DNA of 64,000 bases from Gemmatimonas sp. (lineage in GTDB: Bacteria > Gemmatimonadota > Gemmatimonadetes > Gemmatimonadales > Gemmatimonadaceae), in assembly GCA_031414535.1 (NCBI GenBank), contig JANNVQ010000014.1:96001-160000 (forward strand), written 5' to 3'. Below, in pieces: positions 1 through 22,605 of the stretch; positions within the stretch are counted from its first letter, which is position 1; each line of letters begins with the position of its first letter. Below the pieces are notes generated by a model. It was not told the DNA's origin and searched no databases. It worked only from the letters and a program-made list of their open reading frames with translations. Position numbers and translations under genes: made by a program.

Positions 1-104
1 TGCACGGTACCCTGCGCCAAAAGGCCACGCGGAGCTGCCCCGAGCGCGACAGCAAATGAGAGAAACGCAATGCTGAGGCAACGAGGACGAGTGCGCGAGA
101 ACAT
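1..104 (-). CDS. Partial CDS (5' end only), secreted protein, probably the next gene of the starch-utilisation locus
   Basis: ATG at 104 overlaps the amylase stop (TGATG). Reads MFSRTRPRCLSIAFLSFAVALGAAPRGLLAQGTV, a signal-peptide-like sequence, open to the window edge. Confidence 0.6.
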   Translation of the reverse strand, partial: MFSRTRPRCLSIAFLSFAVALGAAPRGLLAQGTV

Positions 105-1651: not shown

Positions 1652-1670
1652 GCGCAGTCTGGAAAAAGCG

Positions 1671-1712
1671 ACACGCGCCCGGCCCGAGACTGTCTCGGGC
1701 CCGAGCGCGTGT
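1671..1712 (-). terminator. GC-rich hairpin between susD and the amylase (terminator, attenuator or mRNA stabiliser)
   Basis: Perfect inverted repeat GGCCCGAGAC-T-GTCTCGGGCC (1681-1701), flanked by ACACGCGC/GCGCGTGT. No clear U-tract. Confidence 0.45.
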
Positions 1713-1733
1713 GCTAGGGACAATGGTGCCGGC

Positions 1734-3314: not shown

Positions 3315-3335
3315 GAGTTCGTGGGGGTGAGAGGA

Positions 3336-6308: not shown

Positions 6309-6395
6309 ACTTGCCACTCCGCTTTAGACTGGTGGGAAGGTGCACTCTTCCACCACCGCACGGAGATGCGCGGAGCGAGACGAGGCGCCTGTTAG

Positions 6396-6476: not shown

Positions 6477-7583
6477 CTATCGGGACGCCGGCCGTGCCCC
6501 GATCGCCCGACGCCGCGGAATCAGCACCCAATAGTCGAACTCCAACACGACGCTCGGGTCGTACTGCCCTTGGTCAGTCTTGTAAGGAAAGGTGGACGCA
6601 GTCCTATCCTTTGTGGCCACACTTCGTACGCGCAACGCGCCCACATCAGCGCGCCCAGGCAACTCGGCGACCTCAAGAATCTCCGACCAGGCGTAGATGG
6701 TGTCGCCGGCGAAGCTGGGGTTCACGTGCCGTCCACCATTGATGCCCACCACGGTAAAGGCGTTCCCGAGCCCACTGAAGCTCAGGGCACGGGCCAGCGA
6801 AATGAGGTGCCCGCCGTACACAATCCGGCGCCCAAACCGGCCCTCGCGCTCGACGTGCAGATTGAAATGGACCTTGGCCGTGTTTTGAAACAGACGCGCG
6901 GCGCCCATATGATCGGCGTCCTCAATGGTCATCGCGTCCACGTGATCAATGCGTTCACCCACCGCATAATCTTCCCAAGCAAACGCCGAGCCCGCGAGCT
7001 CCGCGTCGTACGCACCATCGGCAATCGCGAATGGCGCGTGCAGGGTCTCGGGTGCCACTTGCTCGGGCAGCACCGGAATCACGTCCAATGGAGCCGGTGA
7101 GGCCGCGTCACGCTTACGCACCATAGCCCAGCGCGTGTACTCGCAGACCATATCGCCGCGCTGGTTCTCACCGCGCGAGCGCACCCAGACCACACCGGTC
7201 TGCCCATCCTTGTTGGCCTTCACGCCCAGCACGGTCGAGGTCGTACGGATGGTATCTCCCGGGTACACCGGGACGCCAAAGCGGCCATCGGCGTAGCCGA
7301 GGTTGGCGATGGCGTTGAGCGAGACATCGGGAACGGTTTTTCCGAACACGATATGAAACACGAGTATCGAGTCGAGTGGAGCGCGCGGGCATCCGACGCT
7401 CGCCGCAAACGGCGACGACGAGTTGACCGCGAAGCGCGAACCAAACAGCGACTGATACACAGCCACATCTCCGTCCGTCACCGTGCGCGGCGTGGCGTGC
7501 ACGATGACCTGCCCCGGCGTGAAATCCTCGAAGAAGTTGCCCGCCTGCATCTTCGTCACGGCCTTGTTCACAGTCTTACTCAC
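6477..7583 (-). CDS. mch: Mesaconyl-C1-CoA hydratase / beta-methylmalyl-CoA dehydratase (double MaoC)
   Basis: GNFFEDF...[28 protein letters not shown] and QNTAKVHFN...RRIVYGGH match Mch as I recall it. GTG at 7583 overlaps the mcl stop (GTGA). Confidence 0.9.
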
Positions 7584-8623
7584 AGCTCGTAGGCCGCGGC
7601 GAGGTCCGGATCCTTCTTGGCCACAAGGCGCGCGAGATCCACCATCACCTTGGCCTGTTTCCAAGTCGCGTCATCCTGCATCTTGCCGTCAATCATCGCC
7701 ACGCCAGAGCCATCCGGCATGGCGTCGAGAATGCGCTTGGCAAACTTCACCTCGCTCACATCAGGGCTGAACACGCGCCGAGCGATCGCGATCTGATTGG
7801 GCGCCAGCGACCAGGCACCCGTGCATCCCATAATGAAGGCGTTCCGGAACTGCGATTCGCAGCCGGCCTCGTCCTTGAGGTCCCCGAAAGGCCCATAGAA
7901 GGCCCGCATACCATATGATTGGCAGGCGTCCACCATCCGAGCCACGGTGTAGTGCCAAAGATCTTGCTGCACAAAAGCACGGGCACTGCCATCGGCGTTG
8001 GGGTCGCCCAGCACTCCATAGAAGGGATGCCCACCGCCAACACGCGTGGTCTTCATCCCGCGCGACGCGGCGAGGTCGGCGGGGCCGAGCGAAAGCCCGT
8101 GCATGCGCGGACTCGCCCCACAAATCTGCTCCACGTTCTTCACCCCTTCGGCGGTCTCGAGCAAAGCGTGAATCAAGATAGGCCGCGTGAGCTTGTACTT
8201 GGCCTCAAGCAGCGCGAGCATTTGGTCCACGAAGTGTATGTCCCAGGGTCCTTCAACCTTGGGAATCATCACGACGTCGAGCTTGTGGCCCGCTTGGCCT
8301 ACAATCTGCTCGAGGTCATCGAGGATCCACGGTGAGTTGAGGCAGTTGACGCGCACCCACAGCGCCGTGCCGCCAAAGTCGTGCTCCAGCGCGGCGGCAA
8401 TGAATCCAGCCCGCGCCGCCGCCTTGTCCTCTACCGGAATGGCGTCCTCGAGGTTGCCGCAGAGCACATCACACTGCTTGGCGAGCTCGGGCAGCTTGGC
8501 GCGGATCTTCTCAAGATGCGGCGGAAAGAAGTGAATCATCCGCTCGGGCCGTACCGGCAAACTCCGCAGCGGTGCCGGCGCGCCGATGGCGAGTGGCTTA
8601 TAGAAATTGTTGGGTAGCTTCAC
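7580..8623 (-). CDS. mcl: Malyl-CoA / beta-methylmalyl-CoA / citramalyl-CoA lyase (Chloroflexus-type Mcl, CitE family)
   Basis: [42 protein letters not shown] and [11 protein letters not shown], as I recall from the Chloroflexus aurantiacus enzyme. GGAGAG ribosome-binding site upstream. Confidence 0.92.
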
Positions 8624-8644
8624 GTAGTGGCTCTCCAGATTGGA

Positions 8645-9868
8645 TCAGGGGGTGGGGCCGGCAACGACTCCATCGTCGTGCAAAATGCCGAGCTCGGCTT
8701 CACTCAGGCCAGCGATGGTCAGCAGAATTTCATCCGTATGCTCGCCGAGCTTGGGCGCGGCAACAGCGTCCGCGACTGGTTCAGCGCTAAAGCGCAGCGG
8801 TGACTTCGGCGCCGGATACTCGCGTTGTCCGTGTGCACCCAGTGTGGTGAACAAGCCAGCGCCGGGCTGGCAGTCGGGATCTTCGTGCAAGGCTTCACTC
8901 AGGCTCCGATACGGCCCCCATGCCACGCGATGGGCCGTGAGCGCGGACGCCACCTCACTGTATGCTCGTAGCGCAAACCACGGCGCCAGCATCTGCGTGA
9001 TCTCTTCGCGCGCATGAAAGCGCTCGCCCTCATCCGCGAGATTTCGGCCCAGCTTGCTTGTGAGCACTTCGACTTCACTGGCCGTGCTCGTGGCCTTCAC
9101 GATGGCGTTCCACTGGCCATCAGTGAGTCCTACAATCATCACGCGCCGTCCATCCGCCGTGAGGAAGTCCTTGCCGTAGGCGCCATACAAATAGTTTCCG
9201 TAGCGCTCGCGGTCCTGGCGATGCAACACCGACTCGGCGATGAAGCCAAGGTTGCCAAGCATCGCCAGCCCAACATCCTTGAGCGCGAGCTCCACCAGCT
9301 GCCCTGCTCCAGTACGCGAGCGCTTCCGTTCAGCGGCGAGCATCGCGATCGCAATTTGGTGTCCAGCAATCGCATCCCAAGCGGGGAACACGTGATTCAC
9401 CGGCGTTGGGTCGTCCACGGGGCCCGTGAAGTCGGGCACGCCAATCTGCGGGTTTACCGTGTAATCGACTTCGCTCGTCCCATCTCGTCGGCCGCTGAGC
9501 ACGACCATGATGAGGTCCTGGCGATGCGCGCGCAGCGATTCGTACGAGAGCCAGCCTTTGGGCGGAAAGTTGGTGGAGAAGATGCCCGCATCCGCGCCCG
9601 GCGCCGTAATCACGCGTGTGAGCAATTCCTGCCCGCGCGGTGAGCGAAGGTCCACCACGATGGAACGCTTCCCCTTGTTCAATCCATCCCAGAAGAGCGA
9701 GCGCGAGCCGTCTGGCGTCAGCGGCCAACGGCGAGCGTCGAGCCCACCACCAATTTGGTCAAACCGAATGACGTCGGCGCCGAGCTGAGCGAGCGTCATG
9801 CCGCCGAGCGGTGCAGCGACGAACGCCGAGCCTTCCACCACCCTCATACCTGCGAGTATGCCAGCCAC
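8645..9868 (-). CDS. mct: Mesaconyl-CoA C1-C4 CoA transferase (class III)
   Basis: VVEGSAFVAAPLGGMTLAQLGADVIRFD, SEVDYTVNP, PAWD (catalytic Asp) and GNYLYGA are Mct signature segments. Confidence 0.9.
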   Translation of the reverse strand: MAGILAGMRVVEGSAFVAAPLGGMTLAQLGADVIRFDQIGGGLDARRWPLTPDGSRSLFWDGLNKGKRSIVVDLRSPRGQELLTRVITAPGADAGIFSTNFPPKGWLSYESLRAHRQDLIMVVLSGRRDGTSEVDYTVNPQIGVPDFTGPVDDPTPVNHVFPAWDAIAGHQIAIAMLAAERKRSRTGAGQLVELALKDVGLAMLGNLGFIAESVLHRQDRERYGNYLYGAYGKDFLTADGRRVMIVGLTDGQWNAIVKATSTASEVEVLTSKLGRNLADEGERFHAREEITQMLAPWFALRAYSEVASALTAHRVAWGPYRSLSEALHEDPDCQPGAGLFTTLGAHGQREYPAPKSPLRFSAEPVADAVAAPKLGEHTDEILLTIAGLSEAELGILHDDGVVAGPTP

Positions 9869-9870
9869 GT

Positions 9871-11112
9871 TCAGATCACCTCGCGCGTGCGCAGATCAGC
9901 GATTCGCGCTTCGTCGAGGCCGAGCAGATCGCGCAGGACTTCGTCCGTGTGCTCGCCAAGCGTGGGGCCGAGCTGACGAATGCTGCCCGGCGTCTCGCTC
10001 AAGCGCGGGACCACGGAGGGGAGAATCATGCTCTCACCGGTGCGATGGTCATCAATGGCCACAAGGTTGCGCCGCGCGTGGAACTGCCGGTCACTAAAGA
10101 TGTCGGCAATGTTGTTGAGCGGACCGGCCGGCGTGTGAGTGGAGTAGCAGCGCTCCAACACTTCCTCGCGCGTGAGCGATCCACACCAGTCGCGCACGAT
10201 CTCGTTCACCTGCGCGGCGTGTTCGAGGCGTGTACGCTGCTCACCGTACGTGGAGGAAGATGCCAACTCGGGGCGCCCCATCGCATTGGCCAAGCGCTCA
10301 AAGAGATGGTCAGTGGCGCAGGAGATGGCCACCCACTTGCCGTCCTTTGTGGCGAAGTGGCCGTGCGGACACGCGAACTCGTTGTGCGAGCTGCCCATGC
10401 GTTCGCGCACCGTGCCGTACATGGAGTAGGCCGGCGCGAGCTCATCAGTGCAGCGGAATACGGATTCGTACAGGGCCGCATCCACGTACTGTCCCTCTCC
10501 CGTCAGATCGCGGTGCCTGAGTGCAAGCAGGACGCCAATCGCTCCGTAGAGGCCGGTCATATAGTCGCCGAGCGTGGTGGAGCCTGGCGTGACGGGCGTG
10601 CCCTTGGGCATTCCGGCCAGATACGCGATGCCGCCCACGGCATGCGCCACACGCGCGAAGCCAGGACGATCCCTATATGGACCCGTCTGCCCGTATCCTG
10701 TTACACGCAGCATCACGAGCTTGGGATTTACTTGCTTGAGCCGGTCCCATCCGAGCCCCCACTTCTCCATCGTACCCGTGCGGAAGTTTTCGCAAAGCAC
10801 ATCGGTTTGCTTGATGAGCTCCAAGAAGAGCTCCTGCCCTTCTGGATGACGCAGATCAAGCGTCACGGAGCGCTTGTTGCGTGCTTCGCTCACCCAGGTG
10901 AGCGTATCGCCGCGCTGCGATGGCGTACCGAAGCGGCGGAGTCCGTCACCGCCGAGCGGGTGCTCAATCTTGAGCACGTCCGCACCGAACTCTCCGAGCA
11001 CGGTGGCGCAGAAGGGTGCCGCGATGATGGTGGCGATGTCTACCACGCGGATGCCTTCAAGCGGCATCGGCGACGGCACGATGGGCACATCAGGATGCAA
11101 GAATGTGCTCAT
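9871..11112 (-). CDS. smtB: Succinyl-CoA:(S)-malate CoA transferase subunit B
   Basis: CaiB/BaiF family; [36 protein letters not shown] and [10 protein letters not shown] match Chloroflexus SmtB as recalled. Tandem with smtA. Confidence 0.87.
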
Positions 11113-11115
11113 GGT

Positions 11116-12345
11116 TCAGATCACTCGCTGTTCGCGGAATTTTGCAATCTCGTTGGCTGCGAGCCCCAGCAACTCGCGCATCACCTGTTCGGTAGAATCT
11201 CCGAGCGTTGGCCCGAGACTGGTGACGCGTCCCGGTGTCTTGGAGAGGCGCGGCACCACGCCGGGAATCGCCAGGTTCTCGACAGGGCCATCGGACATGC
11301 GCACCAGATTCTCGCGGGCGGCAAACTGCTCGTCCTCGAAGATGTCCGCGATGCTGTTCACCTTGCCCACCGGAACTTCCTCACGCAGGCACTTATCGAG
11401 GACTTCCTCACGCGTGAGCGAGGCCACCCATTCAATTACCGTCTTATTGACCTTGTCGCGGTCAGCGAGGCGCTTGCGTTGATCGCCCCAGACTTCGCTC
11501 GAGGAGAGATGCGGCTGCCCCATCGCGACGCTCAAGCGCTCGAACATCTTGTCCGTCGTGCAGGCAATCGCAATCCACTTGCCATCACCGGTGCGGAAGT
11601 GCCCGTGCGGGACGGCGACGAAGCTACCGCTGCCTTCGCGCTCGCGAATTTTGCCGGTCGTTCCGTAGGCCGGTGCAATTTCCTCGAGCACGCGGAACAC
11701 GGCTTCATAGATGCCCACGTCAATCATCTGCCCGCGACCCGTAGCTTCTTGATGACGCAGGGCGATGAGCACACCAATCGCACCGAAGAGGCTCGCGATG
11801 TAATCGCCAAGTGGTACCGTACCCGGAAGCACCGGGGACTCGCCCGGGAAGCCCGAGAGGTAGTTGAGTCCACCAAAGGCCTGCGCGATGTGTGCGAATC
11901 CGCTGCGACGGCGATACGGGCCCGTCTGTCCATAGCCGGACACGCGCAGCATCACGATGCGCGGATTCGTGGCGTGCACGTCGGCCCAGCCGAGCCCCCA
12001 CTCCTCCATGGTGCCAGGACGGAAGTTCTCCACCAGCACATCCGACTTCTGCAGCAGACGCTTGAAGAGCATCACACCATCAGGCTGCCGCAGGTCAATG
12101 GTCACCGACTTGCGGTTGCGCGCCTCGCTCAGCCAACTGAGCGAAGCATCCTCACGCGGAGACTTGGTGCCGAAGTGCCGCATCGGATCGCCCGCGATCG
12201 GATGCTCCACCTTGATCACTTCGGCGCCGAACTCTCCGAGGATTGAAGCGGCGTAGGGGCCGGCGAGGAAATTGCCCACGTCAACGACCCGAACACCATC
12301 GAGTGGACGAGTCGTGAGTGTCGTGGCTGAGTCGTGCGTCGTCAC
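11116..12345 (-). CDS. smtA: Succinyl-CoA:(S)-malate CoA transferase subunit A
   Basis: DVGNFLAGPYAASILGEFGAEV, RRRSGFAHIA, PLGDYIASLFGAIG and AVPHGHF match Chloroflexus SmtA as recalled. Confidence 0.87.
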   Translation of the reverse strand: MTTHDSATTLTTRPLDGVRVVDVGNFLAGPYAASILGEFGAEVIKVEHPIAGDPMRHFGTKSPREDASLSWLSEARNRKSVTIDLRQPDGVMLFKRLLQKSDVLVENFRPGTMEEWGLGWADVHATNPRIVMLRVSGYGQTGPYRRRSGFAHIAQAFGGLNYLSGFPGESPVLPGTVPLGDYIASLFGAIGVLIALRHQEATGRGQMIDVGIYEAVFRVLEEIAPAYGTTGKIREREGSGSFVAVPHGHFRTGDGKWIAIACTTDKMFERLSVAMGQPHLSSSEVWGDQRKRLADRDKVNKTVIEWVASLTREEVLDKCLREEVPVGKVNSIADIFEDEQFAARENLVRMSDGPVENLAIPGVVPRLSKTPGRVTSLGPTLGDSTEQVMRELLGLAANEIAKFREQRVI

Positions 12346-12404
12346 AAAGACCTTGAAAGAGACAGTGAGTCGCGGGTGGCGCAGTCAAACACTAGCTTGC
12401 CCTT

Positions 12405-13295
12405 ATGTCCGACAAATCCCCGATGCCAGAAGTGGACGTTGCGGCATGGATTGGCCGCAGCGAGACCGTCCAAGACGACTGTTCGACGGCGCAAGCCTTG
12501 AGCGTGGCCGCGATGCTGAACCTCAACGCCTCGCAGATTGGCGAAGGCTCCGCCCTTCCCCTGCTCTGGCATTGGTTCTACTTCCTGCCGCGGGCGCCGC
12601 AGGCCAAGCTCTCGGCCGATGGGCATCCCGAGCGCGGTGGATTCCTGCCGCCCATCACCTTGCCGCGGCGCATGTTTGCGGGTGCGCGCGTCACCGTGTA
12701 TCAGTGGCTCACGCTCGGTCGCCCGGCGACGCGCGAAGGTACGATCCTCAACGTGCGGGAGACCAGCGGCAAGAGCGGCAAGCTGACCTTCGTCTCTGTT
12801 GGATACCGATTCCTGCAGGATGGCGTGCTGTGTTTGGAAGAGGAGCAGGACATCGTGTACCGCGAGCCCGGTGCTGCAGTGCCTGCGCCGACTGCCGCCG
12901 AACGTCCAGCGTTGGTAGACGGGGCGTTCAGCGAGGAGTTCACACCAGACTCGCGCCTGCTGTTTCGGTTCAGCGCGCTGACGTTCAACGCGCATCGCAT
13001 TCACTACGACCGTCCCTACGCGATGCAGGAAGAGGGCTACCCCGGCCTCGTCGTGCACGGACCGCTGATTGCACTGCTGCTGGCCGAACTCGCGCAGCAG
13101 CAGTCCCAACATCAGATCGCCAAGTTCAGCTTCAAGGGTATGGCACCGCTGTTCGACATTGGTAGCGTGCGGCTGTCGGGGGTGCGGACAGCCTTGAATG
13201 GCCCCGACGCGCGTGCCTCCGAGCGCATCGGGCTCGCGGCACACGCCGTGGACGGCACGCAGACGATGGCCGCTGAAGCGGTGTTCAGACCGTAA
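12405..13295 (+). CDS. meh: Mesaconyl-C4-CoA hydratase (3-methylfumaryl-CoA hydratase, hotdog fold)
   Basis: LWHWFYFLPRAPQ, DGHPERGGF, RRMFAG, EEEQDIVYRE and LFRFSALTFNAHRIHYD...GLVVHGP, inside the mct/mcl/smt cluster. Confidence 0.87.
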   Translation: MSDKSPMPEVDVAAWIGRSETVQDDCSTAQALSVAAMLNLNASQIGEGSALPLLWHWFYFLPRAPQAKLSADGHPERGGFLPPITLPRRMFAGARVTVYQWLTLGRPATREGTILNVRETSGKSGKLTFVSVGYRFLQDGVLCLEEEQDIVYREPGAAVPAPTAAERPALVDGAFSEEFTPDSRLLFRFSALTFNAHRIHYDRPYAMQEEGYPGLVVHGPLIALLLAELAQQQSQHQIAKFSFKGMAPLFDIGSVRLSGVRTALNGPDARASERIGLAAHAVDGTQTMAAEAVFRP

Positions 13296-16200
13296 TCGCA
13301 AGACCGCGATAGATGCGGGAGCGGTAGCGCGAATCCTTCTCCTCGGGAATCGGCGCCGCTGCCAACAGCACGGCCTTGGCAAAGCGCGCCAACTCTTCCG
13401 CCTGCTCCGCGGCATCGCGCGGCTCCTCGCTGCGCATACGCCGCGTAATGTTGATCTGGTTCACCGGCACATTGGTGTAGAGCCGCTCGTTTTCTACGCC
13501 CAGCGTGGCCGTGAGCGCATGCAAGGTGGTCTTCACGAAGTTGGCGATGGCGAACTGCGCCGGCGATCCGCCCACCGGCACGTCCGGCGACACCAGAATC
13601 AATCGCGCACCCTTGTAGAGCGAGACCTTACGCGCCACGCGGAAGTGCTGCGTGAGATTGCCCTCGACCACTTCCGAGAAGCCCGCCGCATCGAGGTGAT
13701 CCTTGCCCGCGATGCCAAACAATGCTTGCGGAATTGGCGTGAACGGCGTGGCAATCACGGCAGCAGGCAACCCGTGCGCGGCGACGGCCGCATCCATGCC
13801 CGACTCGAGTTCGTCACCGACCACACGGACATCCGCTCGCTCAGCGTGAGGCAGGCCAGAGAGTGACTCGCGGCTCTTAGCTGCGGCTTCGGCTGTTCTC
13901 ATGAGCACCACCAGACGCCCAACCTGTGCTTCGCCGAGGAAGGTCTCGGCGGCGGCGGCCATGTGCTCCGTGAGATGCTCGCCGATGATCCACACCGTCT
14001 CGCCTTCCATGAGCGCCACGCGCTCGGGCCGTGCGCGGCCAAACAACTCGCGTTCGGTGATGGTGCGCTCCTGATGCAAGCCACCGCTGGGCTCGAAGGT
14101 CTCCCCAGAAATTGCGCGGTCCGCCATGAAGAACACCGTGGCCAGTGCGACGTCCGTTTCCGTCGGCATCTGCTTCAAGTGCAGCATGCCGAGTACGCCC
14201 TTGGCGATTTTCTCGGCCTCGGCCATCACCTCGGCGGCGTTCAGGAACGGTTCGGCTGGCTCCGGCAGCTTGCTGAGCCAAGCCTCGGCGGACTCCATTG
14301 CGCCCTTTCCAGCAGCACTCACGACGCCGCCGTTGATCAGGCGGTTGAGGAAGCGCCGCGCAATGGCGGGCGTGAAGATGAAGCGGACCGAAGAGAACTG
14401 TGCGTCAGCTGCGCCCGTCCCAACGAGGCGTGACCCCAAGGTCTGGAGTTCCTGTGGGACCCCTTCCGCCTGCAGCGACGGCACGTCATTGCCCTGCATG
14501 GCGGCAAGGCAATCGGCCAAGCTCGCACCAGACTCAAGCGCCTTGAGTGTGGCCGTGTGCACGAGGGTCAGCCGCTTGTTCTCGTGAATCAGTCGCGCGC
14601 GGCGCGCGAAGAGTCCAGCCTTGCCGTCCTTGCCGGCGAGGCGCTGCCCATCCACCGGCCCCGGTGCGATTGCGTTGATCTGCACCTCCGGACCAACGAA
14701 CTTCGCGAGGTTCTCCACGAGCGCGCGCTGGCCCGCCTTGGAGACTGCGTAGTCCGCACGGTTCGGGTAGGGCACGGCAATAAACTTCTCACCGCCAAAG
14801 TACGAACTCACGTTGAGCACGTAGCCCGAGCCCTGCTTCTTCATCAGCGGCACCACCTTCTCGATGAGCGAGTAGTTGCTCTCGAGATTGGTGTTGAGCG
14901 TGTTGCGCCAGTCCGCAACGTCCATGTCCACGACCATCTGCTCAGCGCCGGCGATCCCTGCGTTGTTGATGAGGTAGTCGAGTCGACCGAACTCCTTGAG
15001 CGTTTTCGCCAAGGCCTCACTGAGCTTCGCTTCGTTGTTGGTGTCTACGTTGGCGATGTACTGCACGCGCTCGTGGGCACGGTAGTAGCCGATGTCCTCG
15101 AGTTCGCGCACGATGCTGTCGCGCATACCCTTAAGCTGCTCCTCGCGACGCGCCGTGATCATGACGCGAGCGCCAGCCATCGCGAGCAGGCGTCCGATTT
15201 GGCCACCGATACCCGCCGAGCCGCCGGTGATGAGGGCGACCTTGCCCAAGTGCAGGCCGTGGAGGGCTTCCATCCAACCGAAAGTGGCTTTGCGTGAGCC
15301 CGTGGCGTCCACGATGCTCGAGGGCAGGTAGAGATTCACCTGATTGATGCGGCGCTTGGTGTACATCAAGCGCGCTGCGTGGCTCGCCGCGAAGGGGAGC
15401 CCCTCATCCTCCGCGTTGGACCAACGGATGATTTGGTTGGACCATTCCACGACCTTGCGCTTGTGCATGGCGACTTGCACTTCTGTCTCGTCGCGCCAGA
15501 TGCGCACCAACTCTTCCATTGATGAGCGCAGAATGTCGGCGTAGGCGTTGGCCCCGCCATCGCTGCCATTCGAGAGGAAGATTGTGCGCGGGTACGAGTT
15601 GCGCGGAGCAGCCGTGCGCCAAAAGCGCGTCAGCTCGCGGGCGATCGCGATGGCACCAACGATCTCGCCCGTGATGAACTGATCAACGTCGGTGTCGCTG
15701 GCCTCGGCCAAGGGCGCGAGGAACTTGCCGGGACCATAGGCCGGCATGACGATGGCACCGTGGAGGACGTCCTCGCGGGCGCGCTCTTCATTGAGCACGG
15801 CGGAAAGCGTCTCGGGACGACGACGATCGAACAAGACCGGTGTGATGCGGCGGTCGCGGTCATCATCCTGAAGCGCAGCCTGCGCCGCGTGCACGTTCTC
15901 CTCGCTCCCGAGGCCAAGGATGACGCTCGCACCGCAACCCGCCTGCACGCGTGCCACCGTGAGTGCATCGGCCACTTGATTACCGGCCGCCACGAGCAGC
16001 GTGACGCCTGTGCCATCAACTGTCCGGAGCGTGGGCCGCGCGGTGAAGGTGCTACGCGACTCTTGGCGGACGGCCATGCCGTGCGTGACTTCAAAGTTGT
16101 GTCCGTTGAAGGCGGCAGATTCTTCGGAGCCCAAGAAGACGATGGTGTTGGCGACGTCATCCACGGTGGGGAGACGGCGTCCTGCAACGCCCTTCTCGTC

Positions 16201-17073
16201 TGGGCGAGCGAGGGTCATGAGGCCCGTCATCTCATCGTGCGTGGTGCCAGGCTTCATGTCGCGCAGTCCGTCCATGGCGGCGAACACGTTGCGAATGCGT
16301 TCGCTATCAATGGGGCCAGGGAATACGGTATTCACGCGAATTCCGCGGGGTCCAAGCTGCAGGGCCAGTTGGCGCGAGAAGGCATTGAGCGCTGCCTTCG
16401 GGACTACGTAGGCCACGCGTCCGTAGTACTGCGTGCGCGAGAAGATGGTAGACACCTGGATGATGGTCGCACCAGGCTTGAGATGCGGGGTGACGGCCCG
16501 CACGAGATTCCAAGAGAGCCCGAGCAGATTGCCCGCGGCGTCGCGCGCCGTTTCGGAATCGGCGCTGCCTTCGGTACGCAGCAGTTCGAGTTCGTCGCGC
16601 GTGAGCGGGACGTCCTCGAGAATTTGCTTGGGGCCCGCGGAGCCCGCGTTGTTGACCACGATATCAATGCGACCAAACTGCTGCATCGCCGCGTCGATGC
16701 CCCAACGCACCTGGCCGGGATCGGCGGCATCGAAGGGCAGTACGTGCGCGTTGGCAGCCTTGGCCTTAGTCTGCTTAAGCAGTGCCGTGCGCGTGGCCTC
16801 GAGCTTCGTGCGGTTGCGACCGACGAGGATGACCGTCGCGCCTTCCTCGAGATACCGACGCGAAATGACAACGCCGATGTTGCCCGCCGCACCGGTAACA
16901 AGCGCGACCTTGCCCGCGAGGCGACCGGCGCCGCGTACGGATGTCTTTGCCGATGTCTTTGCCGATGTCTTGGCCGATGTCTTGGCAGAGGCTTTTGCAG
17001 AGGCCTTGCTGGCGGCCGGCTTCGACTTCGCAGACTTTGTTGGCTTCGCTGACTTCTTGATGGTACGCGGCAT
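13285..17073 (-). CDS. mcr: Bifunctional malonyl-CoA reductase (3-hydroxypropionate-forming)
   Basis: 1262 aa with two intact SDR units: TGAAGNIG/NNAG/YVVPK and TGGSAGIG/NNAG/YFGGE...YPNRADYAVSK. Ends RIYRGLAITV. Has a ~45-aa Lys-rich N-terminal extension. Confidence 0.93.
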   Translation of the reverse strand: MPRTIKKSAKPTKSAKSKPAASKASAKASAKTSAKTSAKTSAKTSVRGAGRLAGKVALVTGAAGNIGVVISRRYLEEGATVILVGRNRTKLEATRTALLKQTKAKAANAHVLPFDAADPGQVRWGIDAAMQQFGRIDIVVNNAGSAGPKQILEDVPLTRDELELLRTEGSADSETARDAAGNLLGLSWNLVRAVTPHLKPGATIIQVSTIFSRTQYYGRVAYVVPKAALNAFSRQLALQLGPRGIRVNTVFPGPIDSERIRNVFAAMDGLRDMKPGTTHDEMTGLMTLARPDEKGVAGRRLPTVDDVANTIVFLGSEESAAFNGHNFEVTHGMAVRQESRSTFTARPTLRTVDGTGVTLLVAAGNQVADALTVARVQAGCGASVILGLGSEENVHAAQAALQDDDRDRRITPVLFDRRRPETLSAVLNEERAREDVLHGAIVMPAYGPGKFLAPLAEASDTDVDQFITGEIVGAIAIARELTRFWRTAAPRNSYPRTIFLSNGSDGGANAYADILRSSMEELVRIWRDETEVQVAMHKRKVVEWSNQIIRWSNAEDEGLPFAASHAARLMYTKRRINQVNLYLPSSIVDATGSRKATFGWMEALHGLHLGKVALITGGSAGIGGQIGRLLAMAGARVMITARREEQLKGMRDSIVRELEDIGYYRAHERVQYIANVDTNNEAKLSEALAKTLKEFGRLDYLINNAGIAGAEQMVVDMDVADWRNTLNTNLESNYSLIEKVVPLMKKQGSGYVLNVSSYFGGEKFIAVPYPNRADYAVSKAGQRALVENLAKFVGPEVQINAIAPGPVDGQRLAGKDGKAGLFARRARLIHENKRLTLVHTATLKALESGASLADCLAAMQGNDVPSLQAEGVPQELQTLGSRLVGTGAADAQFSSVRFIFTPAIARRFLNRLINGGVVSAAGKGAMESAEAWLSKLPEPAEPFLNAAEVMAEAEKIAKGVLGMLHLKQMPTETDVALATVFFMADRAISGETFEPSGGLHQERTITERELFGRARPERVALMEGETVWIIGEHLTEHMAAAAETFLGEAQVGRLVVLMRTAEAAAKSRESLSGLPHAERADVRVVGDELESGMDAAVAAHGLPAAVIATPFTPIPQALFGIAGKDHLDAAGFSEVVEGNLTQHFRVARKVSLYKGARLILVSPDVPVGGSPAQFAIANFVKTTLHALTATLGVENERLYTNVPVNQINITRRMRSEEPRDAAEQAEELARFAKAVLLAAAPIPEEKDSRYRSRIYRGLAITV
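16940..17011. repeat. Coding 12-bp tandem repeat (6 units, decaying) in the mcr 5' end, encoding (S-A-K-T/A)n
   Basis: Plus strand GATGTCTTTGCC x2, GATGTCTTGGCC, GATGTCTTGGCA, GAGGCTTTTGCA, GAGGCCTTGCTG. Confidence 0.9.
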
Positions 17074-17106
17074 CGTGAATCCTGCTCGGGTGAGAGAGGC
17101 GAGAGC

Positions 17107-20100
17107 TCAGGCGTCGCTGCGGCGGCGCGCGGCCCATTCCTGATACAGCTCGTCGCGGCTTCGGAGGCCTGGCCGCGGGAGCGCGTGGTTCACCACATAC
17201 GTGGCGCCGGCGTGGGTGTTATCCCACATCGCTTGGTGCGCCTTAGGTAGATCTTCCCAAGGCACGACAGTTGGTTCGGTCACTTCGAGCTGGCCCGCAC
17301 CGATCATCTCGTTCATCCGCACCACCTCGTAGGCGTTGCAGAGGTGCGTGCCGGCAATAGTCGCCGTCGGCATCAGGATGCGACGCTGCCGCATCCAGAC
17401 TTGTGGGGCGTAGAAGGTGAAGCGGCGGCCCGCGAGATCCTCGCAGTACACCACGCGTCCCGTGAACGGCTTCACCAGCGATGTGCTCGCGGCGAGTGCA
17501 TCGTGGCCAGCGCGTTCGATGATGAGATCGGGATAGCCGCGCGGGTTATCCGCCGTACGCAGATACTTGCCGACCGCGCTGCCGAAAGGCTTCATCGTGC
17601 GCTCTTGGTAATCGCGCACGGCATCCTTGAAGGCCGCGGTCTCTTTCTTGGCGTCGGGCATCGGCGGCAAGGCGTCTGGCCAATCGAAGCCATCGCCCTC
17701 ACGGCGGCGAATTTCCTCGAGCGATACCACGCCCTTCACCGCATCGCCAAATCCCAGCGACTGCACGAACTCGCGTTGTGCGTCGGTGGCGGTTGCCACC
17801 ACGAGCCGGCCGCGCAACGCTCGCACAGCCTCAATGGCTTCAAGGCCAACAGGATCGAGCAGCGCGCCGTCGCCTACTCCATAGTAGAGCAACACAGCTT
17901 CGCCGGCACGCAGGCGCGCGCGGCGCAGCATGGCATCAGGTGTCGATGCGCCACGCTTACCCACGAACGAGAACCAATACCCGCTCGTCGCACCGTAAAA
18001 AGTGAGTGTGCCTCCCTCAGCGAGCATCTGGAAGCTGCGTGGGAAAGCTTCCTGCCCGGCGTGCGAGACTGCGTAATCAGCGAGTCCACCACCGTTCTGA
18101 TCGCGAAAGGCCTGCAAGAGCGGCTCACCGTCGCGCTCCCACTTGGCGATGCCCGCGGCGTCTGACGGCACGGGCGTGAACACCTTGGCCCAGCGCGCGT
18201 CCTTACGATCAATCGCCCCGGCCGCGCCCTGCGCCTTCACGAAGGCAGCACGTTCGGCGCTCGATACGAGGCCAACCGCTGAAAGTCCGTTGCGGGCCGC
18301 GCTCTTGAGCGCCTCAAGGCCGGTACCCGTCGCCGCACCTTCCACGAAGATGCGCTTACCGCTCTCCACCTGAAGCGTGGTGAACAGCGCACGCACGACT
18401 GTGCCCAAGTTGAGCACATAGGAGCCAGCGGCCTCCAGCGTCAGATCAGCCGGCAGATGATGCAACTGCGGCCCCTGCGTGAGCAAAAACTGTTGATGCG
18501 AGCCGGTGTCCGTCTCGTAGCCTTGAATGGAGAAGCCCGCGTACATTGGGTCGCGACCAGCGAGTGGAGACAGCAACTCACTCTGGCCGGAGTAAATGGT
18601 GACGAGGTCCCCAACCTTGAGACGGCCTTCCTTCTTGAGTTCGCCGCCCATCGCAGCGACGAGTCCTACGCCACCAGAGCCCGTGACCTGGTAGTCGAGG
18701 TCGTGATTCTCAAACGGCGACACCGGAATGCCCGTGATGGCCCAGATGTCATTGAAGTTCACTTCCGACGCGAGCACGTACACGAGCGCTTCGTTGGGCC
18801 CAGGTGTGGGCACAGGCGCGACGATCTCACGCTCTTTTTCCCGCGGCAGGCCGTGGTCCGGCGCACCGGTGCGCGCGTCGCGCACCACAGCGTGACCAAA
18901 CTGCCAACGAGGCACCGGCGTGAGTCCCGGGAAGAATGGCGCGCCCACGGGGAGCAAGTCACCACTGGAAATCAGCGCCTCACGCACGGCACCGTGTGGC
19001 GTGGTATCGCGATGCGTGGGAAGAGCTGCGCTGCGTTTGTCTTGGAACGCTTGGATGCCCGCCTTGCCGCCGTCGGGATCAACCACGGCTTCGGCAAAGA
19101 GTCGCGCTTCGCGCTCGAGACCCGCATCAATGCCCCGCGTCCACCCGGTGCGCACGGCATCAACGATACGGGCAGCTACTGCCCCGCGACCCACCACATC
19201 TGCCTGCGCGAGCAAGCGTCGCACTTCGGGATCATGCAGCGCCGCATTCAAGTCATCACCACCCGGACCCTGCCAAGCACGCGCCGCCGCACGACGCGCC
19301 GCAAAGGTCCTGGCAACTAAGCCGCTACCCTTTTCATCACGCACATACTCAGCGGCCAAGCGCACCGCGAGCGTGAGCACGTCTTCTGAGTCAGAGGCCA
19401 GCGCGTGCACGAGGCCGTCGGCGCTCATCGCGTCGGCGTCCTGCGTGCGCCCACCGATGATGATCTCTAGCGCTCGTACGAGCGGATGCGCGTGCTTCGC
19501 AGTCTCAAGCAAACGCGGAAGTCGCTGCGTGCCGCCATAGCCGGGCAACAAATTGAGTCGCACCTCTGGCTGACCGAAGCTCGCCGAGGACTCTGCCACA
19601 CGCACGTGACAGGCCATGGCGAACTCCATGCCTCCGCCGAGCGCCACACCATTAATCGCGGCGATGGCCGGCTTGTTCATCGCTTCAATCTTGCGAAACG
19701 CGAGCTGTGCGTTGTTAGGCAGAGGAAGCGCTTCTTCAATCGTGCGCACTTCCTCGAGAAGCTGACGGATATCCGCACCTGCCACGAAACTCGCCGTACC
19801 CTGCCCCGTGAAGATCACAGCCTTCACATCCTCGCGACGCGCGACGTGGTCCACCACGATGTTGAGTTCGTCGAGCGCACGCTCGTTGAGCGCGTTCACC
19901 GGCGGATTATTAATGGTCACGACCGCAAGACGCGCCGTGTCGGACAGCGGATGATACAGAATGCGGAAGTAGCGGTAGTCCTCAAACAGGCGCTGCTCGT
20001 CGGCCACCTTCTGCCGCTCGAGCCAGTCCGCCACCACTCGGCGCAATTCCGGAATGCACTCAGGATTGCGCAGCGTTGAGGTATCGCCTACGTCTTCACC

Positions 20101-22605
20101 ATCCACGATAGCGCGCACCATCCGACGCATATACTTGCCGCTGCGCGTCTCCGGAAACTGGGAGACTTCAATGAAGTCTTCCGGTACCGCCGTGGGGCCC
20201 TTCTCTTGGCGCACGGTCTCAATGAGGCGACGGCGATCATCGCTCGTGAGCTTGCGGCCCGGCGCGGGCTTCACGAACGCCAGCGGCGTGAGCCCCTTCT
20301 GCGCATGCGGGGCGCCGACGACAATCACATTGCCCACGGGTGAATCGGGATTCACCTGCTTGTCGCGCAGGATAGCGCCTTCAATCTCTTCTGTGCCGAG
20401 CCGGTGGCCAGACACGTTGATTACGTCGTCTGAACGGCCGTGCAGCGAGAAGCCGCCGTCTGCGTACTTTACCGCAAAGTCGCCCTGCGTGTAGGCAAAG
20501 CGGCCCTGCCAGCGCGTCCAGTAGGTGCTGCGGTAGCGATCAAAATCACCGCGCCAGCTCTTGGACACCGCGTGCCCATCAACCTTAAAGCCTTCGGCGT
20601 CGCCCCAGATGGTGCGCGCCAAATACGGATACGGCGCCGCAATGACAATCTCGCCCTTCTCGCCGATCTCGGCGGGACGTGGCTTGAGACGGCCCTCGGC
20701 ATCAGGCTCGCTATCCGGCAACCACACATCGCCCTGCACCCACGGCAGAGGATACGTGTGGGCATCGGCGCGCAGCGGGAAATCGGCGTTGCCAAACAAA
20801 TGCGTCCACACGATGCCGCCGTGCTCGGTGGCCCAATACGAATTGATGTACCAGGGCGTCACGAGCTCCATGCCAAACTGCTGCACGCTCGGCGACGTGG
20901 GCTCGGCGCAGAAGGTCGCCACACGCAGCGAGTCGAGCGCGTATTGCTTGACGTCCGCCACGTTCTGCGGATCCGTCATCACCGTCTTCAAGAAGGTCAC
21001 GCCCGCCTTGAAGATCTTCACACCGTAGCGCTCAATCATGCTCGCGAAGCGGCCGGCGCTCGGGAATACCGGCGCGCCTTCGCCAATCACCGAGGTCACG
21101 CGCGAGGACAGCGCAGCGCAGATCATATAGCTCTGGCCCGTGATCCAACCGGGATCGGCCACCACGTACATCACATCGCCCGGCTGCGCATCGAAGGCAA
21201 CCTTCATCGTATGTGTGAGGCCGGCCACGTAGCCGCCGTGGACGTGCACGACGCCCTTGGGCTTGCCGGTGGAGCCGGAGGTATAGATGAAGAAGAGCGG
21301 AAACTCCGCGTCCACCACAGCCGGCGCCGACGAGGCCCAGACGGCTTCCACCAACGCACGGTCATCGAGCGCGAGCAGGTCTGCCTCGCTCGCAACATTC
21401 GCGCCGGCGCGCCGTGCCTGCTCCACAACGTGCGCGAGCGCCTTCGCGGTAAGTTCGTGCGCCCACTGGTCACGCTCGGCGCGCCAAACAATATCCGTCT
21501 GTGCCGTATGACGCACCACAATCACCGCACGCACCCGGGCCGGCGTGGCAACGAGCGCTGAGGCGATAGCGGTGCGAATGCGCGAGGCTTCGGCGGAGCT
21601 GAGGGCGGTGAAGGCCTCAAGTGCGAGACCCACGCCGCGCATCACATCCGAGCGCTCGAGCGTGATTTCACCGCGTACAGCGCTGGCCGCACCATCGAGA
21701 ATGGCGCTGGCCAAAGCGGTATCCAGCTTCAAGGACTCAACAGCGGCGCGCACAGTAGCCGCGGCAACCTCGGCCGGTACGTAATTGTCGAGCGCTGGGT
21801 CCGTATACACTTCCTTGAACGGCACCACCTGCGCGTTGCGATATCCACCATCGGCCGTGATGACCACGGACGCGCCCGCATTGTGAATGCGGTCGGAGAG
21901 CGTCTTGTCGGAGAAGCCGCCAAACACCGGCGTGTACACTACACCGAGTCGCTTGCAGGCCTCAGTCCAGAACACTTGCTCCGGAATGTTTGGCATGTTG
22001 ATGGCCACGCGGTCCCCGCGCTCGACGCCAAGATTGCGCAGCGCGATGGCGCACTTGGCCGTCTCGAGCAGGAGGCGCTTACGGCTGACCGCGAAGGACA
22101 CCACCGGGCCGCCGCGGCCACCATCGAGCGACTGGTCCCATCTGTCTCCTTCGAAGAGCAGCGCGGCTTCGCTGCCGTGGCCGGCCAAAACGTGGCGATC
22201 TACTTCATTAAAGCAGGCGTTGGTGAGACCGCCGGAAAACCAGCGGTAAAACGGGGCTTCGCTGTCGTCGAAGGCGCGATGCCAAGGAGTCCAGTCGGCC
22301 GCGAGCGAGGCTTCAACTTGAGCGCCAGTGCGGGCGTCGTAGCCGGCCCAACGGGAGCTCGTATCGTCCCAAGAGATCCAGGCACCGTGCATGCCCACAT
22401 CTGGTGCAAACCAATGGATTTCGCGGCTGGCGATGGCACCGTGATAGGCGCCTGGATCGGCGAGCACTTGAGCCCGCTGCGCGTCCCATTCGGCACGGCT
22501 ACGGATTGGGTTCACCAGGGCCAACGGCGGGGTGATGTCTGGCGCCGTGCCCGCAGCGTCCGCTGGTGCGGAACGAGAATTTCCCGTGCTAGTGCGCATC
22601 TGCAC
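17107..22605 (-). CDS. pcs: Trifunctional propionyl-CoA synthase (3-HP-CoA synthetase / dehydratase / acrylyl-CoA reductase)
   Basis: 1832 aa: acyl-CoA synthetase (YTSGSTGKPKG, PETRSGKYMRR), crotonase (GGGMEFA, GQPEVRLNLLPGYGGTQRL) and MDR reductase (SEVNFNDIW, EGAATGTG, QVWMRQRRI) domains. Start is GTG 22605 or ATG 22599. Confidence 0.94.
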   Translation of the reverse strand: MQMRTSTGNSRSAPADAAGTAPDITPPLALVNPIRSRAEWDAQRAQVLADPGAYHGAIASREIHWFAPDVGMHGAWISWDDTSSRWAGYDARTGAQVEASLAADWTPWHRAFDDSEAPFYRWFSGGLTNACFNEVDRHVLAGHGSEAALLFEGDRWDQSLDGGRGGPVVSFAVSRKRLLLETAKCAIALRNLGVERGDRVAINMPNIPEQVFWTEACKRLGVVYTPVFGGFSDKTLSDRIHNAGASVVITADGGYRNAQVVPFKEVYTDPALDNYVPAEVAAATVRAAVESLKLDTALASAILDGAASAVRGEITLERSDVMRGVGLALEAFTALSSAEASRIRTAIASALVATPARVRAVIVVRHTAQTDIVWRAERDQWAHELTAKALAHVVEQARRAGANVASEADLLALDDRALVEAVWASSAPAVVDAEFPLFFIYTSGSTGKPKGVVHVHGGYVAGLTHTMKVAFDAQPGDVMYVVADPGWITGQSYMICAALSSRVTSVIGEGAPVFPSAGRFASMIERYGVKIFKAGVTFLKTVMTDPQNVADVKQYALDSLRVATFCAEPTSPSVQQFGMELVTPWYINSYWATEHGGIVWTHLFGNADFPLRADAHTYPLPWVQGDVWLPDSEPDAEGRLKPRPAEIGEKGEIVIAAPYPYLARTIWGDAEGFKVDGHAVSKSWRGDFDRYRSTYWTRWQGRFAYTQGDFAVKYADGGFSLHGRSDDVINVSGHRLGTEEIEGAILRDKQVNPDSPVGNVIVVGAPHAQKGLTPLAFVKPAPGRKLTSDDRRRLIETVRQEKGPTAVPEDFIEVSQFPETRSGKYMRRMVRAIVDGEDVGDTSTLRNPECIPELRRVVADWLERQKVADEQRLFEDYRYFRILYHPLSDTARLAVVTINNPPVNALNERALDELNIVVDHVARREDVKAVIFTGQGTASFVAGADIRQLLEEVRTIEEALPLPNNAQLAFRKIEAMNKPAIAAINGVALGGGMEFAMACHVRVAESSASFGQPEVRLNLLPGYGGTQRLPRLLETAKHAHPLVRALEIIIGGRTQDADAMSADGLVHALASDSEDVLTLAVRLAAEYVRDEKGSGLVARTFAARRAAARAWQGPGGDDLNAALHDPEVRRLLAQADVVGRGAVAARIVDAVRTGWTRGIDAGLEREARLFAEAVVDPDGGKAGIQAFQDKRSAALPTHRDTTPHGAVREALISSGDLLPVGAPFFPGLTPVPRWQFGHAVVRDARTGAPDHGLPREKEREIVAPVPTPGPNEALVYVLASEVNFNDIWAITGIPVSPFENHDLDYQVTGSGGVGLVAAMGGELKKEGRLKVGDLVTIYSGQSELLSPLAGRDPMYAGFSIQGYETDTGSHQQFLLTQGPQLHHLPADLTLEAAGSYVLNLGTVVRALFTTLQVESGKRIFVEGAATGTGLEALKSAARNGLSAVGLVSSAERAAFVKAQGAAGAIDRKDARWAKVFTPVPSDAAGIAKWERDGEPLLQAFRDQNGGGLADYAVSHAGQEAFPRSFQMLAEGGTLTFYGATSGYWFSFVGKRGASTPDAMLRRARLRAGEAVLLYYGVGDGALLDPVGLEAIEAVRALRGRLVVATATDAQREFVQSLGFGDAVKGVVSLEEIRRREGDGFDWPDALPPMPDAKKETAAFKDAVRDYQERTMKPFGSAVGKYLRTADNPRGYPDLIIERAGHDALAASTSLVKPFTGRVVYCEDLAGRRFTFYAPQVWMRQRRILMPTATIAGTHLCNAYEVVRMNEMIGAGQLEVTEPTVVPWEDLPKAHQAMWDNTHAGATYVVNHALPRPGLRSRDELYQEWAARRRSDA

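Follow-up and report, generated by a model that had tools for sequence, protein, structure and literature searches.

A 64,000-nucleotide stretch of DNA from a Gemmatimonas sp. genome (GCA_031414535.1, contig JANNVQ010000014.1; G000:C14:96001-160000), hereafter the window, holds a gene cluster whose predicted products are the full set of enzymes specific to the 3-hydroxypropionate bicycle, the pathway known from Chloroflexus. Eight adjacent, open, full-length reading frames (pcs, mcr, meh, smtA, smtB, mct, mcl and mch) fill positions 6477-22605 (Table 1), bearing out the first-pass annotation of this DNA, which had described eight intact, contiguous genes with nothing between them. The gaps between neighbors measure -4, 21, 2, 3, 59, -11 and 33 bp, so that a further gene cannot fit. 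Seven of the eight genes lie on the minus strand, while meh alone occupies the plus strand; it starts back to back with smtA and runs towards mcr, whose 3' end it overlaps by 11 bp. Given this orientation, the cluster probably comprises three transcription units rather than one operon. A sigma-70 consensus was not found in the smtA-meh gap, where a promoter would be expected from the divergent starts, and a promoter and terminator scan returned fewer sites than shuffled sequence, making the scan uninformative. Where mcr and meh converge (13285-13295) there is no terminator-like site, and read-through would make antisense RNA over meh or mcr.

Table 1. Features of the bicycle cluster, in window coordinates
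Feature	Position	Strand	Basis
pcs, trifunctional propionyl-CoA synthase (ligase, dehydratase, reductase), 1832 aa	17107..22605	-	full-length 6EQO match
mcr, bifunctional malonyl-CoA reductase, 1262 aa	13285..17073	-	full-length 8HI4/8HJW match
meh, probable mesaconyl-C4-CoA hydratase, 296 aa	12405..13295	+	8KHG relative and conserved position
smtA-meh gap, 59 bp between divergent starts	12346..12404	.	inferred two-way promoter region
smtA	11116..12345	-	PF02515; position; 56% identity to SmtB
smtB	9871..11112	-	named close homologues
mct, intramolecular CoA transferase	8645..9868	-	7XKG/8APQ matches; residues kept
mcl, malyl-/beta-methylmalyl-/citramalyl-CoA lyase, Chloroflexus type, 347 aa	7580..8623	-	6KIN/4L7Z matches
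mch, beta-methylmalyl-CoA dehydratase (mesaconyl-C1-CoA hydratase), ~368 aa	6477..7583	-	4E3E match; PF19315

Full-length matches to solved structures were obtained for five of the predicted proteins (Pcs, Mcr, Mcl, Mct and Mch). Residues 37-1828 of Pcs align with PDB entry 6EQO (2519 bits), and the protein contains AMP-binding, ECH and ADH_zinc domains in that order (dN/dS 0.10). Mcr matches 8HI4 and 8HJW from residues 47 and 50, respectively, to residue 1262 (1174 and 1126 bits; dN/dS 0.16), and the residues named for its two catalytic sites in PMC10470521 are all kept (T209, Y216, R219, Y222 and K226 in one; S757, Y769, R772, Y775, K779 and R825 in the other). The N-terminal tail of Mcr, which the solved structures do not match, is rich in Lys, Ala and Ser and derives from four repeats spaced by 12 bp (16940-16999). 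Mct matches 7XKG and 8APQ (573 and 561 bits) and keeps L43, R47, Y136 and D165, the catalytic residues Leu43, Arg47, Tyr136 and Asp165 of PMC9813914. Its TIGR04253 score of 609 bits is under the 725 cut-off, which 1 of the 33 family-sample matches reaches. Mcl scores 636 and 634 bits against 6KIN and 4L7Z versus 197 bits against 4L9Y and is therefore of the Chloroflexus type (dN/dS 0.06). The catalytic residues of Mcl described in PMC3832036 (E60, D61, R92, E157, D184 and D318) are kept at an offset of -1. Mch matches 4E3E (539 bits), 8HGN (455 bits) and PF19315 (dN/dS 0.12).

The three remaining assignments draw on homology and gene position. SmtB (dN/dS 0.10) has homologues of 87-90% identity so named by JGI, is 83% identical to a record of Gemmatimonas groenlandica and 80% identical to the homologues of Ca. 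Chloroploca. SmtA matches PF02515, is 56% identical to SmtB and occupies the conserved position before smtB (dN/dS 0.10); its assignment follows from position and paralogy. The weakest of the eight identity calls is Meh (dN/dS 0.22), whose closest solved relative is the itaconyl-CoA hydratase 8KHG (212 bits) and for which Pfam and NCBIfam searches gave no match. The divergent meh position is the same in 14 of 20 loci of the family and is also occupied where the Mct of the locus has the same sequence as a named Chloroflexi or Accumulibacter protein, and family and conserved position together make the call probable. All eight bicycle-specific enzymes are thus encoded, judged by sequence, as orthologues of the Chloroflexus set, and orthology likewise predicts their catalytic activities, including citramalyl-CoA cleavage by Mcl.

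Purifying selection acts on every gene of the cluster (dN/dS 0.06-0.22, from one near homologue per gene), which with the open frames speaks against a decaying cluster. Contigs of run X1, possibly the source sample, match the cluster without difference at an even depth of 11-15 and span both outer and all inner junctions, save one 78-bp hole among the listed pieces. Run X2, from the same study, bridges the pcs-flank and smtA-meh junctions, and run X3, from a second study, contains a relative about 87% alike there that bridges the susC-mch junction and in which 26 of the 29 listed differences inside cluster genes are at third codon positions. The exact, even-depth, junction-spanning contigs rule out a chimeric contig as far as tested, so that the contig integrity on which the first-pass annotation had made its reading depend is upheld.

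The host genome (3.70 Mb in 58 contigs, 98.4% complete and 1.9% contaminated) has no assembled 16S rRNA gene, and its affiliation is read from other markers. The genes neighboring pcs-mcr in loci named as Gemmatimonadota have syntenic orthologues in the host for 19 of 24 loci, and orthologue identity to the host has a median of 62% for Gemmatimonadota loci (157 hits) versus 43% for loci of Gammaproteobacteria (96 hits). Mcr proteins of same-family genomes are intermixed with named Gemmatimonadaceae Mcr, and the DNA on either side of the cluster is 74-81% identical to that of congeners. This indirect evidence strongly supports a host within the Gemmatimonadaceae; a Chloroflexota host is rejected. 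The same assignment to Gemmatimonadota had previously been drawn from flanking genes, of which SusC/D and Wza/Wzc are confirmed and the 'Omp85-like' gene (22806-24194) has no Pfam match. The site orthologous to that flanking pcs-mcr in 19/24 Gemmatimonadota loci (C41:43365-46059) holds unrelated small genes in the host.

The host carries pufLM and AcsF, while BchE and RuBisCO I/II were not found in this 98.4% complete genome by family searches, the method that also underlies the negatives for isocitrate lyase, malate synthase, hydrogenase and SoxY below. This gene content predicts an aerobic anoxygenic phototroph, and AcsF without BchE fits pigment synthesis in the presence of oxygen only. Genes for alternative complex III and complex I are also present. 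About 50 kb separates two blocks of photosynthesis genes on one contig (C49:17800-35600 and 87400-111000), in which some of the gene names are tentative assignments by motif. The single RuBisCO-like gene (41870-43096, minus strand) is of form IV type and is rejected as a CO2-fixing enzyme, its best NCBIfam scores being far under the cut-offs; a form IV RuBisCO-like protein is known in freshwater phototrophic Gemmatimonadota (PMC8547001).

Outside the cluster the genome supplies the remaining steps of the bicycle. AccA, accB, accC and accD each score over their family cut-offs, and a Pcc-type set consists of a PccB-type carboxyltransferase, a biotin carboxylase and a carrier, with specificity inferred from family. 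Methylmalonyl-CoA epimerase is over its cut-off, and methylmalonyl-CoA mutase is split and has the Tyr motif, its specificity being presumed from family and motif. SdhCAB, malate dehydrogenase and class I fumarase complete the set, and, of the genes that the first-pass annotation had named for a genome search, the carboxylases, epimerase, mutase, sdh, fumarase and puf are present. The host also encodes GlcDEF, PntAB, Acs and PEP carboxylase, and a motif screen found beta-carbonic anhydrase and a PPDK motif. Isocitrate lyase and malate synthase were not found in the host, nor were Gcl and Ccr; the reductase domain of Pcs retrieves from the genome only itself and one 25% match. The lack of Ccr and the Chloroflexus type of Mcl rule out the ethylmalonyl-CoA pathway. 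The bicycle is the sole route found in the host for net assimilation of acetyl-CoA and glyoxylate.

Candidates for an inorganic electron donor in the host are SQR type III (over cut-off) and an FdhA-like subunit; NiFe hydrogenase and SoxY were not found, and for CoxL and PFOR the motif screen gave weak negatives, that screen having missed PEP carboxylase. SQR type III is accompanied by TusE-like and DsrE2-like genes, the noted sulfur-gene sites being C29:208976-211104 and C49:35637-38160, and a trio of MBL-rhodanese, TauE and ArsR genes directly adjoins the puf-bch genes. The SQR and rhodanese-trio genes could serve detoxification or form a sulfide electron inlet. The formate dehydrogenase alpha-like gene (C34:81333-84308) is over the TIGR01591 cut-off and has a NuoG-like N-terminus, with no obvious partner subunits alongside.

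Across the family the two halves of the cluster, the pcs-mcr pair and the six-gene glyoxylate block, are usually apart. Around mct, 14 of 20 family stretches have the order meh (divergent) followed by smtA-smtB-mct-mcl-mch, two are cut by contig ends, and mcr or pcs occurs in 0/20. The other four (L147, L152, L154 and L155, from genera g50 and g176) have meh and mct-mcl-mch without smtAB there, and the first cycle may be open in these genomes. Among 71 Mcr loci in named genomes, pcs lies upstream in 58 and genes of the block lie beside mcr in 4. The first-pass annotation had singled out the contiguity of the eight genes, and this proves less special: all eight are also contiguous in a named Gemmatimonadetes contig (L288/L008), the L288 genome having pufLM, and in 8 of 80 metagenome loci (L225, L249, L251, L255, L259, L266, L269 and L270), of which two look duplicate, while five further loci run into pcs at a contig end. 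These other one-cluster forms share the divergent meh. They differ in order, meh being followed by smtA-smtB-mct-mcl-mch-pcs-mcr with pcs-mcr downstream and co-directional, whereas in the window pcs-mcr lies on the opposite side and is convergent with meh, an order seen in no other locus fetched. The Mcr proteins of the other one-cluster loci fall in other clades, so the joining there was independent, and the existence of two or more orders suggests that selection favors the proximity of the halves.

The halves also have different nearest relatives. In RpoB the host nests among congeners without bicycle genes, while its Mcr is sister to genus g176 and the six-gene block clusters with genus g53; trees in which either half takes the position of the other are rejected (AU p 0.003 and 3e-45; LG+G4, 14/18 and 16/33 rows, groups named after earlier trees). 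Single-gene trees of Mcl, Mch and Meh are poorly resolved, and the Mcr trees are unrooted and without Chloroflexota Mcr, so that the direction of transfer is not readable from them. The composition of the cluster is host-like (tetranucleotide distance rank 103 of 206 windows; GC3 0.72-0.78 versus 0.77 +/- 0.04), the annotated flanking genes in the window include no transposase, integrase or tRNA, no repeats were found at the cluster ends, and 72,556 plasmid records gave no Mcr match. A recent island or mobile element is rejected by the absence of mobility genes, tRNA and end repeats and by the host-like composition. The patchy distribution points to past lateral gain, and the host-like composition and the lack of mobility genes suggest that this gain was not recent. 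We infer that the genes were gained some time ago from other Gemmatimonadaceae: the two halves would come from different sub-lineages and have been joined in the host lineage or in a donor. Transfer as one unit, for which the first-pass annotation considered the form suited, may be possible, but it finds no support in the absence of mobility genes and plasmid Mcr, the host-like composition and the separate relatives of the halves. With midpoint rooting, a Steroidobacteraceae/Burkholderiales Mcr clade (among loci L004-L074) is sister to the host and g176 Mcr within gemmatimonad diversity, which hints at a possible transfer of Mcr from Gemmatimonadaceae into Proteobacteria.

Mcr was found in none of the 100 nearest relatives (0/100) and none of the 54 congeners (0/54) and occurs in at least 8 of 400 genomes of the phylum, all 8 in Gemmatimonadaceae, a floor set by the stricter first look used in that search. 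Within the family Mct is found in 32/400 genomes and a reaction centre in 63/400, counts treated as one 400-genome draw since the per-genus totals agree. A reaction centre is present in 29 of the 32 genomes with Mct and in 34 of the remaining 368, a contrast confounded by kinship; the genome-level p of 2e-23 and the genus-level p of 5e-6 (all 7/7 Mct genera lie within the 16/77 phototrophic genera) both overstate the link. On a 24-row RpoB tree the Mct carriers are not one clade: at least four changes are needed, and a single clade is rejected (AU p 2e-6). Adding one genome found by Mcr to the 32 Mct genomes gives 33 other carriers. Mcr is present in 32 of these, indicating that a genome with one half tends to retain the other even where the two are widely separated, and isocitrate lyase was found in 0/33 (0/34 with the host). 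SQR type III occurs in 9 (4 over cut-off), the NiFe hydrogenase family in 9 and SoxY in 0, so that the carriers share no inorganic donor system. One Mcr match (L075, G443:C17) contains a TGA stop.

We consider it probable, with some room for doubt, that the complete bicycle works in light-powered co-assimilation, in which an aerobic anoxygenic phototroph takes up acetate, glycolate or 3-hydroxypropionate together with bicarbonate. Since the enzymes are orthologues of those of Chloroflexus, their chemistry is expected to be the same. If the genes are expressed, AccABCD would carboxylate acetyl-CoA, Mcr and Pcs would take malonyl-CoA via 3-hydroxypropionate to propionyl-CoA, and Pcc, epimerase and mutase would put in a second bicarbonate to give succinyl-CoA, from which SmtAB, SDH, fumarase and Mcl could release glyoxylate. 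The sequence Mcl-Mch-Mct-Meh-Mcl would then convert glyoxylate and propionyl-CoA to pyruvate and acetyl-CoA without loss of CO2. Light would enter through cyclic photophosphorylation as the source of ATP, and NADPH would come from partial oxidation of the organic substrate (TCA cycle, PntAB). With flux in this direction and of sufficient size, acetyl-CoA, glycolate-derived glyoxylate, propionate or 3-hydroxypropionate would become C3 and C4 precursors with bicarbonate added. Co-assimilation is documented as the everyday use of the bicycle in C. aurantiacus (PMC8307300).

Several observations weigh against this reading. Kinship confounds the association with phototrophy, with only 3 independent pairs on supported RpoB branches and a sign test that is not significant, and 34 sampled phototrophs and all 22 phototrophic congeners manage without the bicycle. 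Non-Chloroflexota carriers are described as showing no enrichment in photoautotrophy (bioRxiv 10.64898/2026.09.02.748891). Isocitrate lyase is reported in 3.3% of freshwater Gemmatimonadota (PMC10581226), and an enzyme usually missing lends weak support by its lack here. PEP carboxylase gives the host another route for anaplerotic CO2 uptake, and no clear ActP/GlcA-type transporter for acetate or glycolate was found in the host.

The cluster could instead serve two scavenging routes with little net gain of CO2, Pcs salvaging 3-hydroxypropionate or acrylate, the block disposing of glyoxylate from algal glycolate and Mcr carrying low flux. The mostly separate sites of the halves and their different histories in the host fit this division, as do the GlcDEF genes, and each half also occurs alone, pcs-mcr without Mct in one Steroidobacteraceae genome tested and the block with Accumulibacter-type Mct. 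Against such a division, Mcr is intact under its low dN/dS of 0.16 with every checked catalytic residue kept, lies 33 bp after pcs and makes 3-hydroxypropionate from malonyl-CoA, a reaction that salvage does not need; both halves are present in 32 of 33 carriers and occur joined in two or more different orders. We regard scavenging alone as unlikely.

Facultative autotrophy in light and low oxygen would require that SQR pass electrons from sulfide to quinones and that reverse electron flow (complex I, PntAB) yield NADPH for the conversion of bicarbonate to pyruvate. Every enzyme of the bicycle is encoded, the reaction centre, alternative complex III and complex I are present, the sulfur genes include SQR type III with its TusE-like and DsrE2-like neighbors and the trio beside puf-bch, and the DNA comes from freshwater sediment, if the sample is rightly identified. 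SQR with PDO is a common detoxification set, and neither hydrogenase nor SoxY was found in the host by family searches. The scarcity of SQR type III among the other carriers and the dependence of pigment synthesis on oxygen, which competes for quinol, tell further against it, as does the absence of autotrophic growth of G. groenlandica on sulfide or thiosulfate in a test that was not clean (PMC7844134). An analogous aerobic phototroph with RuBisCO is described as likewise failing to grow lithoautotrophically (PMC9758169). We therefore hold autotrophy to be quite improbable. Of the 'CO2-fixation or mixotrophy module' proposed in the first-pass annotation, mixotrophy is favored; the case for autotrophy is weak, with no donor common to the carriers and a negative result in G. 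groenlandica. It is similarly a long shot that phototrophic Gemmatimonadaceae net-fix CO2 by the whole bicycle and that the host lineage grows on light, sulfide and bicarbonate at low oxygen. If true, functional 3-hydroxypropionate autotrophy would for the first time extend beyond Chloroflexota, and the aerobic anoxygenic phototrophs would include an autotroph, in a family in which close to half of the sampled phototrophic members (29/63) carry the genes.

An electron valve, in which Mcr and Pcs would consume excess NADPH whenever oxygen drops or light slows respiration, with CO2 taken up incidentally, agrees with the reaction-centre association and with the lack of a CBB cycle for that role in the host, and the bicycle has been credited with redox balancing (PMC8307300). 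It leaves the retention of the six-gene glyoxylate block unexplained, overlaps with co-assimilation and is inseparable from it by sequence; as the main function we think it very improbable. The idea that the cluster was acquired and is now silent or decaying, or that it is an artefact of assembly or binning, suggested by the absence from all 54 congeners and the sub-threshold Mct score, is largely refuted and barely credible given the open frames, dN/dS of 0.06-0.22, third-position differences in X3 (26/29), the 358-kb contig with flanks 74-81% identical to congeners, the spanned junctions and the tetranucleotide rank of 103/206.

The best outside evidence for the co-assimilation reading comes from G. 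groenlandica. Its named records include a full-length Mcr, 62% identical to that of the host and labelled only 'SDR family oxidoreductase'; its known carrier genes are Mcr and SmtB (named records) and malyl-CoA lyase (RAST table). In the RAST supplement of PMC7844134, malyl-CoA lyase is entered for G. groenlandica and not for G. phototrophica. With sulfide or thiosulfate G. groenlandica is reported to have grown neither photo- nor chemoautotrophically; it grew on organics only, with yeast extract as the sole accepted nitrogen source and H2 absent from the available text (PMC7844134). The nitrogen requirement and the unmentioned H2 are what keep that autotrophy test from being clean. As a liquid-growing type strain with Mcr and SmtB, G. 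groenlandica makes the question testable in culture now.

Among known systems, Chloroflexus aurantiacus and Roseiflexus castenholzii share with the host the eight orthologues, the order meh followed by smtA-smtB-mct-mcl-mch, a type II reaction centre and alternative complex III. Unlike them, the host has AcsF without BchE; autotrophy is proven in theirs and would be no more than a possibility in the host. In C. aurantiacus mcr, pcs and the block are at three sites (PMC3150298), the first-pass annotation having placed mcr and pcs apart from the block, and in the host they share a single site. The glyoxylate shunt and CO dehydrogenase of C. aurantiacus (PMC3150298) were not found in the host. 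Steroidobacteraceae and aerobic phototrophic Alphaproteobacteria (6EQO, 6K8S) provide the closest Pcs structure and the sister Mcr clade and have the pcs-mcr half, and Ca. Accumulibacter has the glyoxylate block in the same order as the host. Each of these holds one half in view, which is insufficient for the bicycle, whereas the host holds both.

The remark in the first-pass annotation that such genes are noted outside Chloroflexota is matched by Garritano et al. (2022; PMC9802188), who describe the full 3-HP bi-cycle set in two Gemmatimonadales metagenome-assembled genomes (MAGs), in Ga0077523 and in Burkholderiaceae MAGs. Their Gemmatimonadales MAGs resemble the host in order and family, complete set and salvage-operon order, and differ in coming from glacier forefield soil and in being linked to inorganic donors, with pcs-mcr-block adjacency unmentioned in the available text (PMC9802188). 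Marker genes in freshwater Gemmatimonadota are reported together with a call for validation of function (bioRxiv 10.64898/2026.09.02.748891), and complete 3-HP pathways in three Greenland aerobic anoxygenic phototroph MAGs are reported in a text whose available part does not mention Gemmatimonadota (PMC13702023). The pathway is not reported for the phylum in the accessible portions of PMC8547001, PMC10581226, PMC9426454 and PMC11316326, and PMC8547001 and PMC11316326 portray phototrophic Gemmatimonadota genomes as non-autotrophic, pure photoheterotrophs without carbon-fixation genes. Our literature search found no report of bicycle function in Gemmatimonadota, in agreement with the first-pass annotation, nor of the single cluster or of Mcr in G. 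groenlandica.

The gene set in Gemmatimonadales is thus already published and the one-cluster form recurs, while the association of Mct with phototrophy across the family and the presence of Mcr and SmtB in cultured G. groenlandica appear to be unreported. What distinguishes the host is that the pathway is complete in a near-complete genome of an aerobic phototroph without the alternatives and, subject to kinship, tracks phototrophy in the family sample. The cluster bears on whether the bicycle works outside Chloroflexota and whether aerobic anoxygenic phototrophs fix meaningful amounts of CO2, points for which validation is still called for (bioRxiv 10.64898/2026.09.02.748891). Should the pathway be active, these bacteria of fresh water and glaciers would take up more bicarbonate in the light than has been estimated. 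With its 16 kb the cluster also offers all eight enzymes in compact and probably mesophilic form to efforts at synthetic CO2 fixation or a photorespiration bypass.

On its mch side the cluster adjoins a SusC/SusD and amylase locus (window positions 104-6317 and upstream on C14), a locus that a congener has without the bicycle cluster. Further upstream of it lie glycogen and PTS genes, named by eye.

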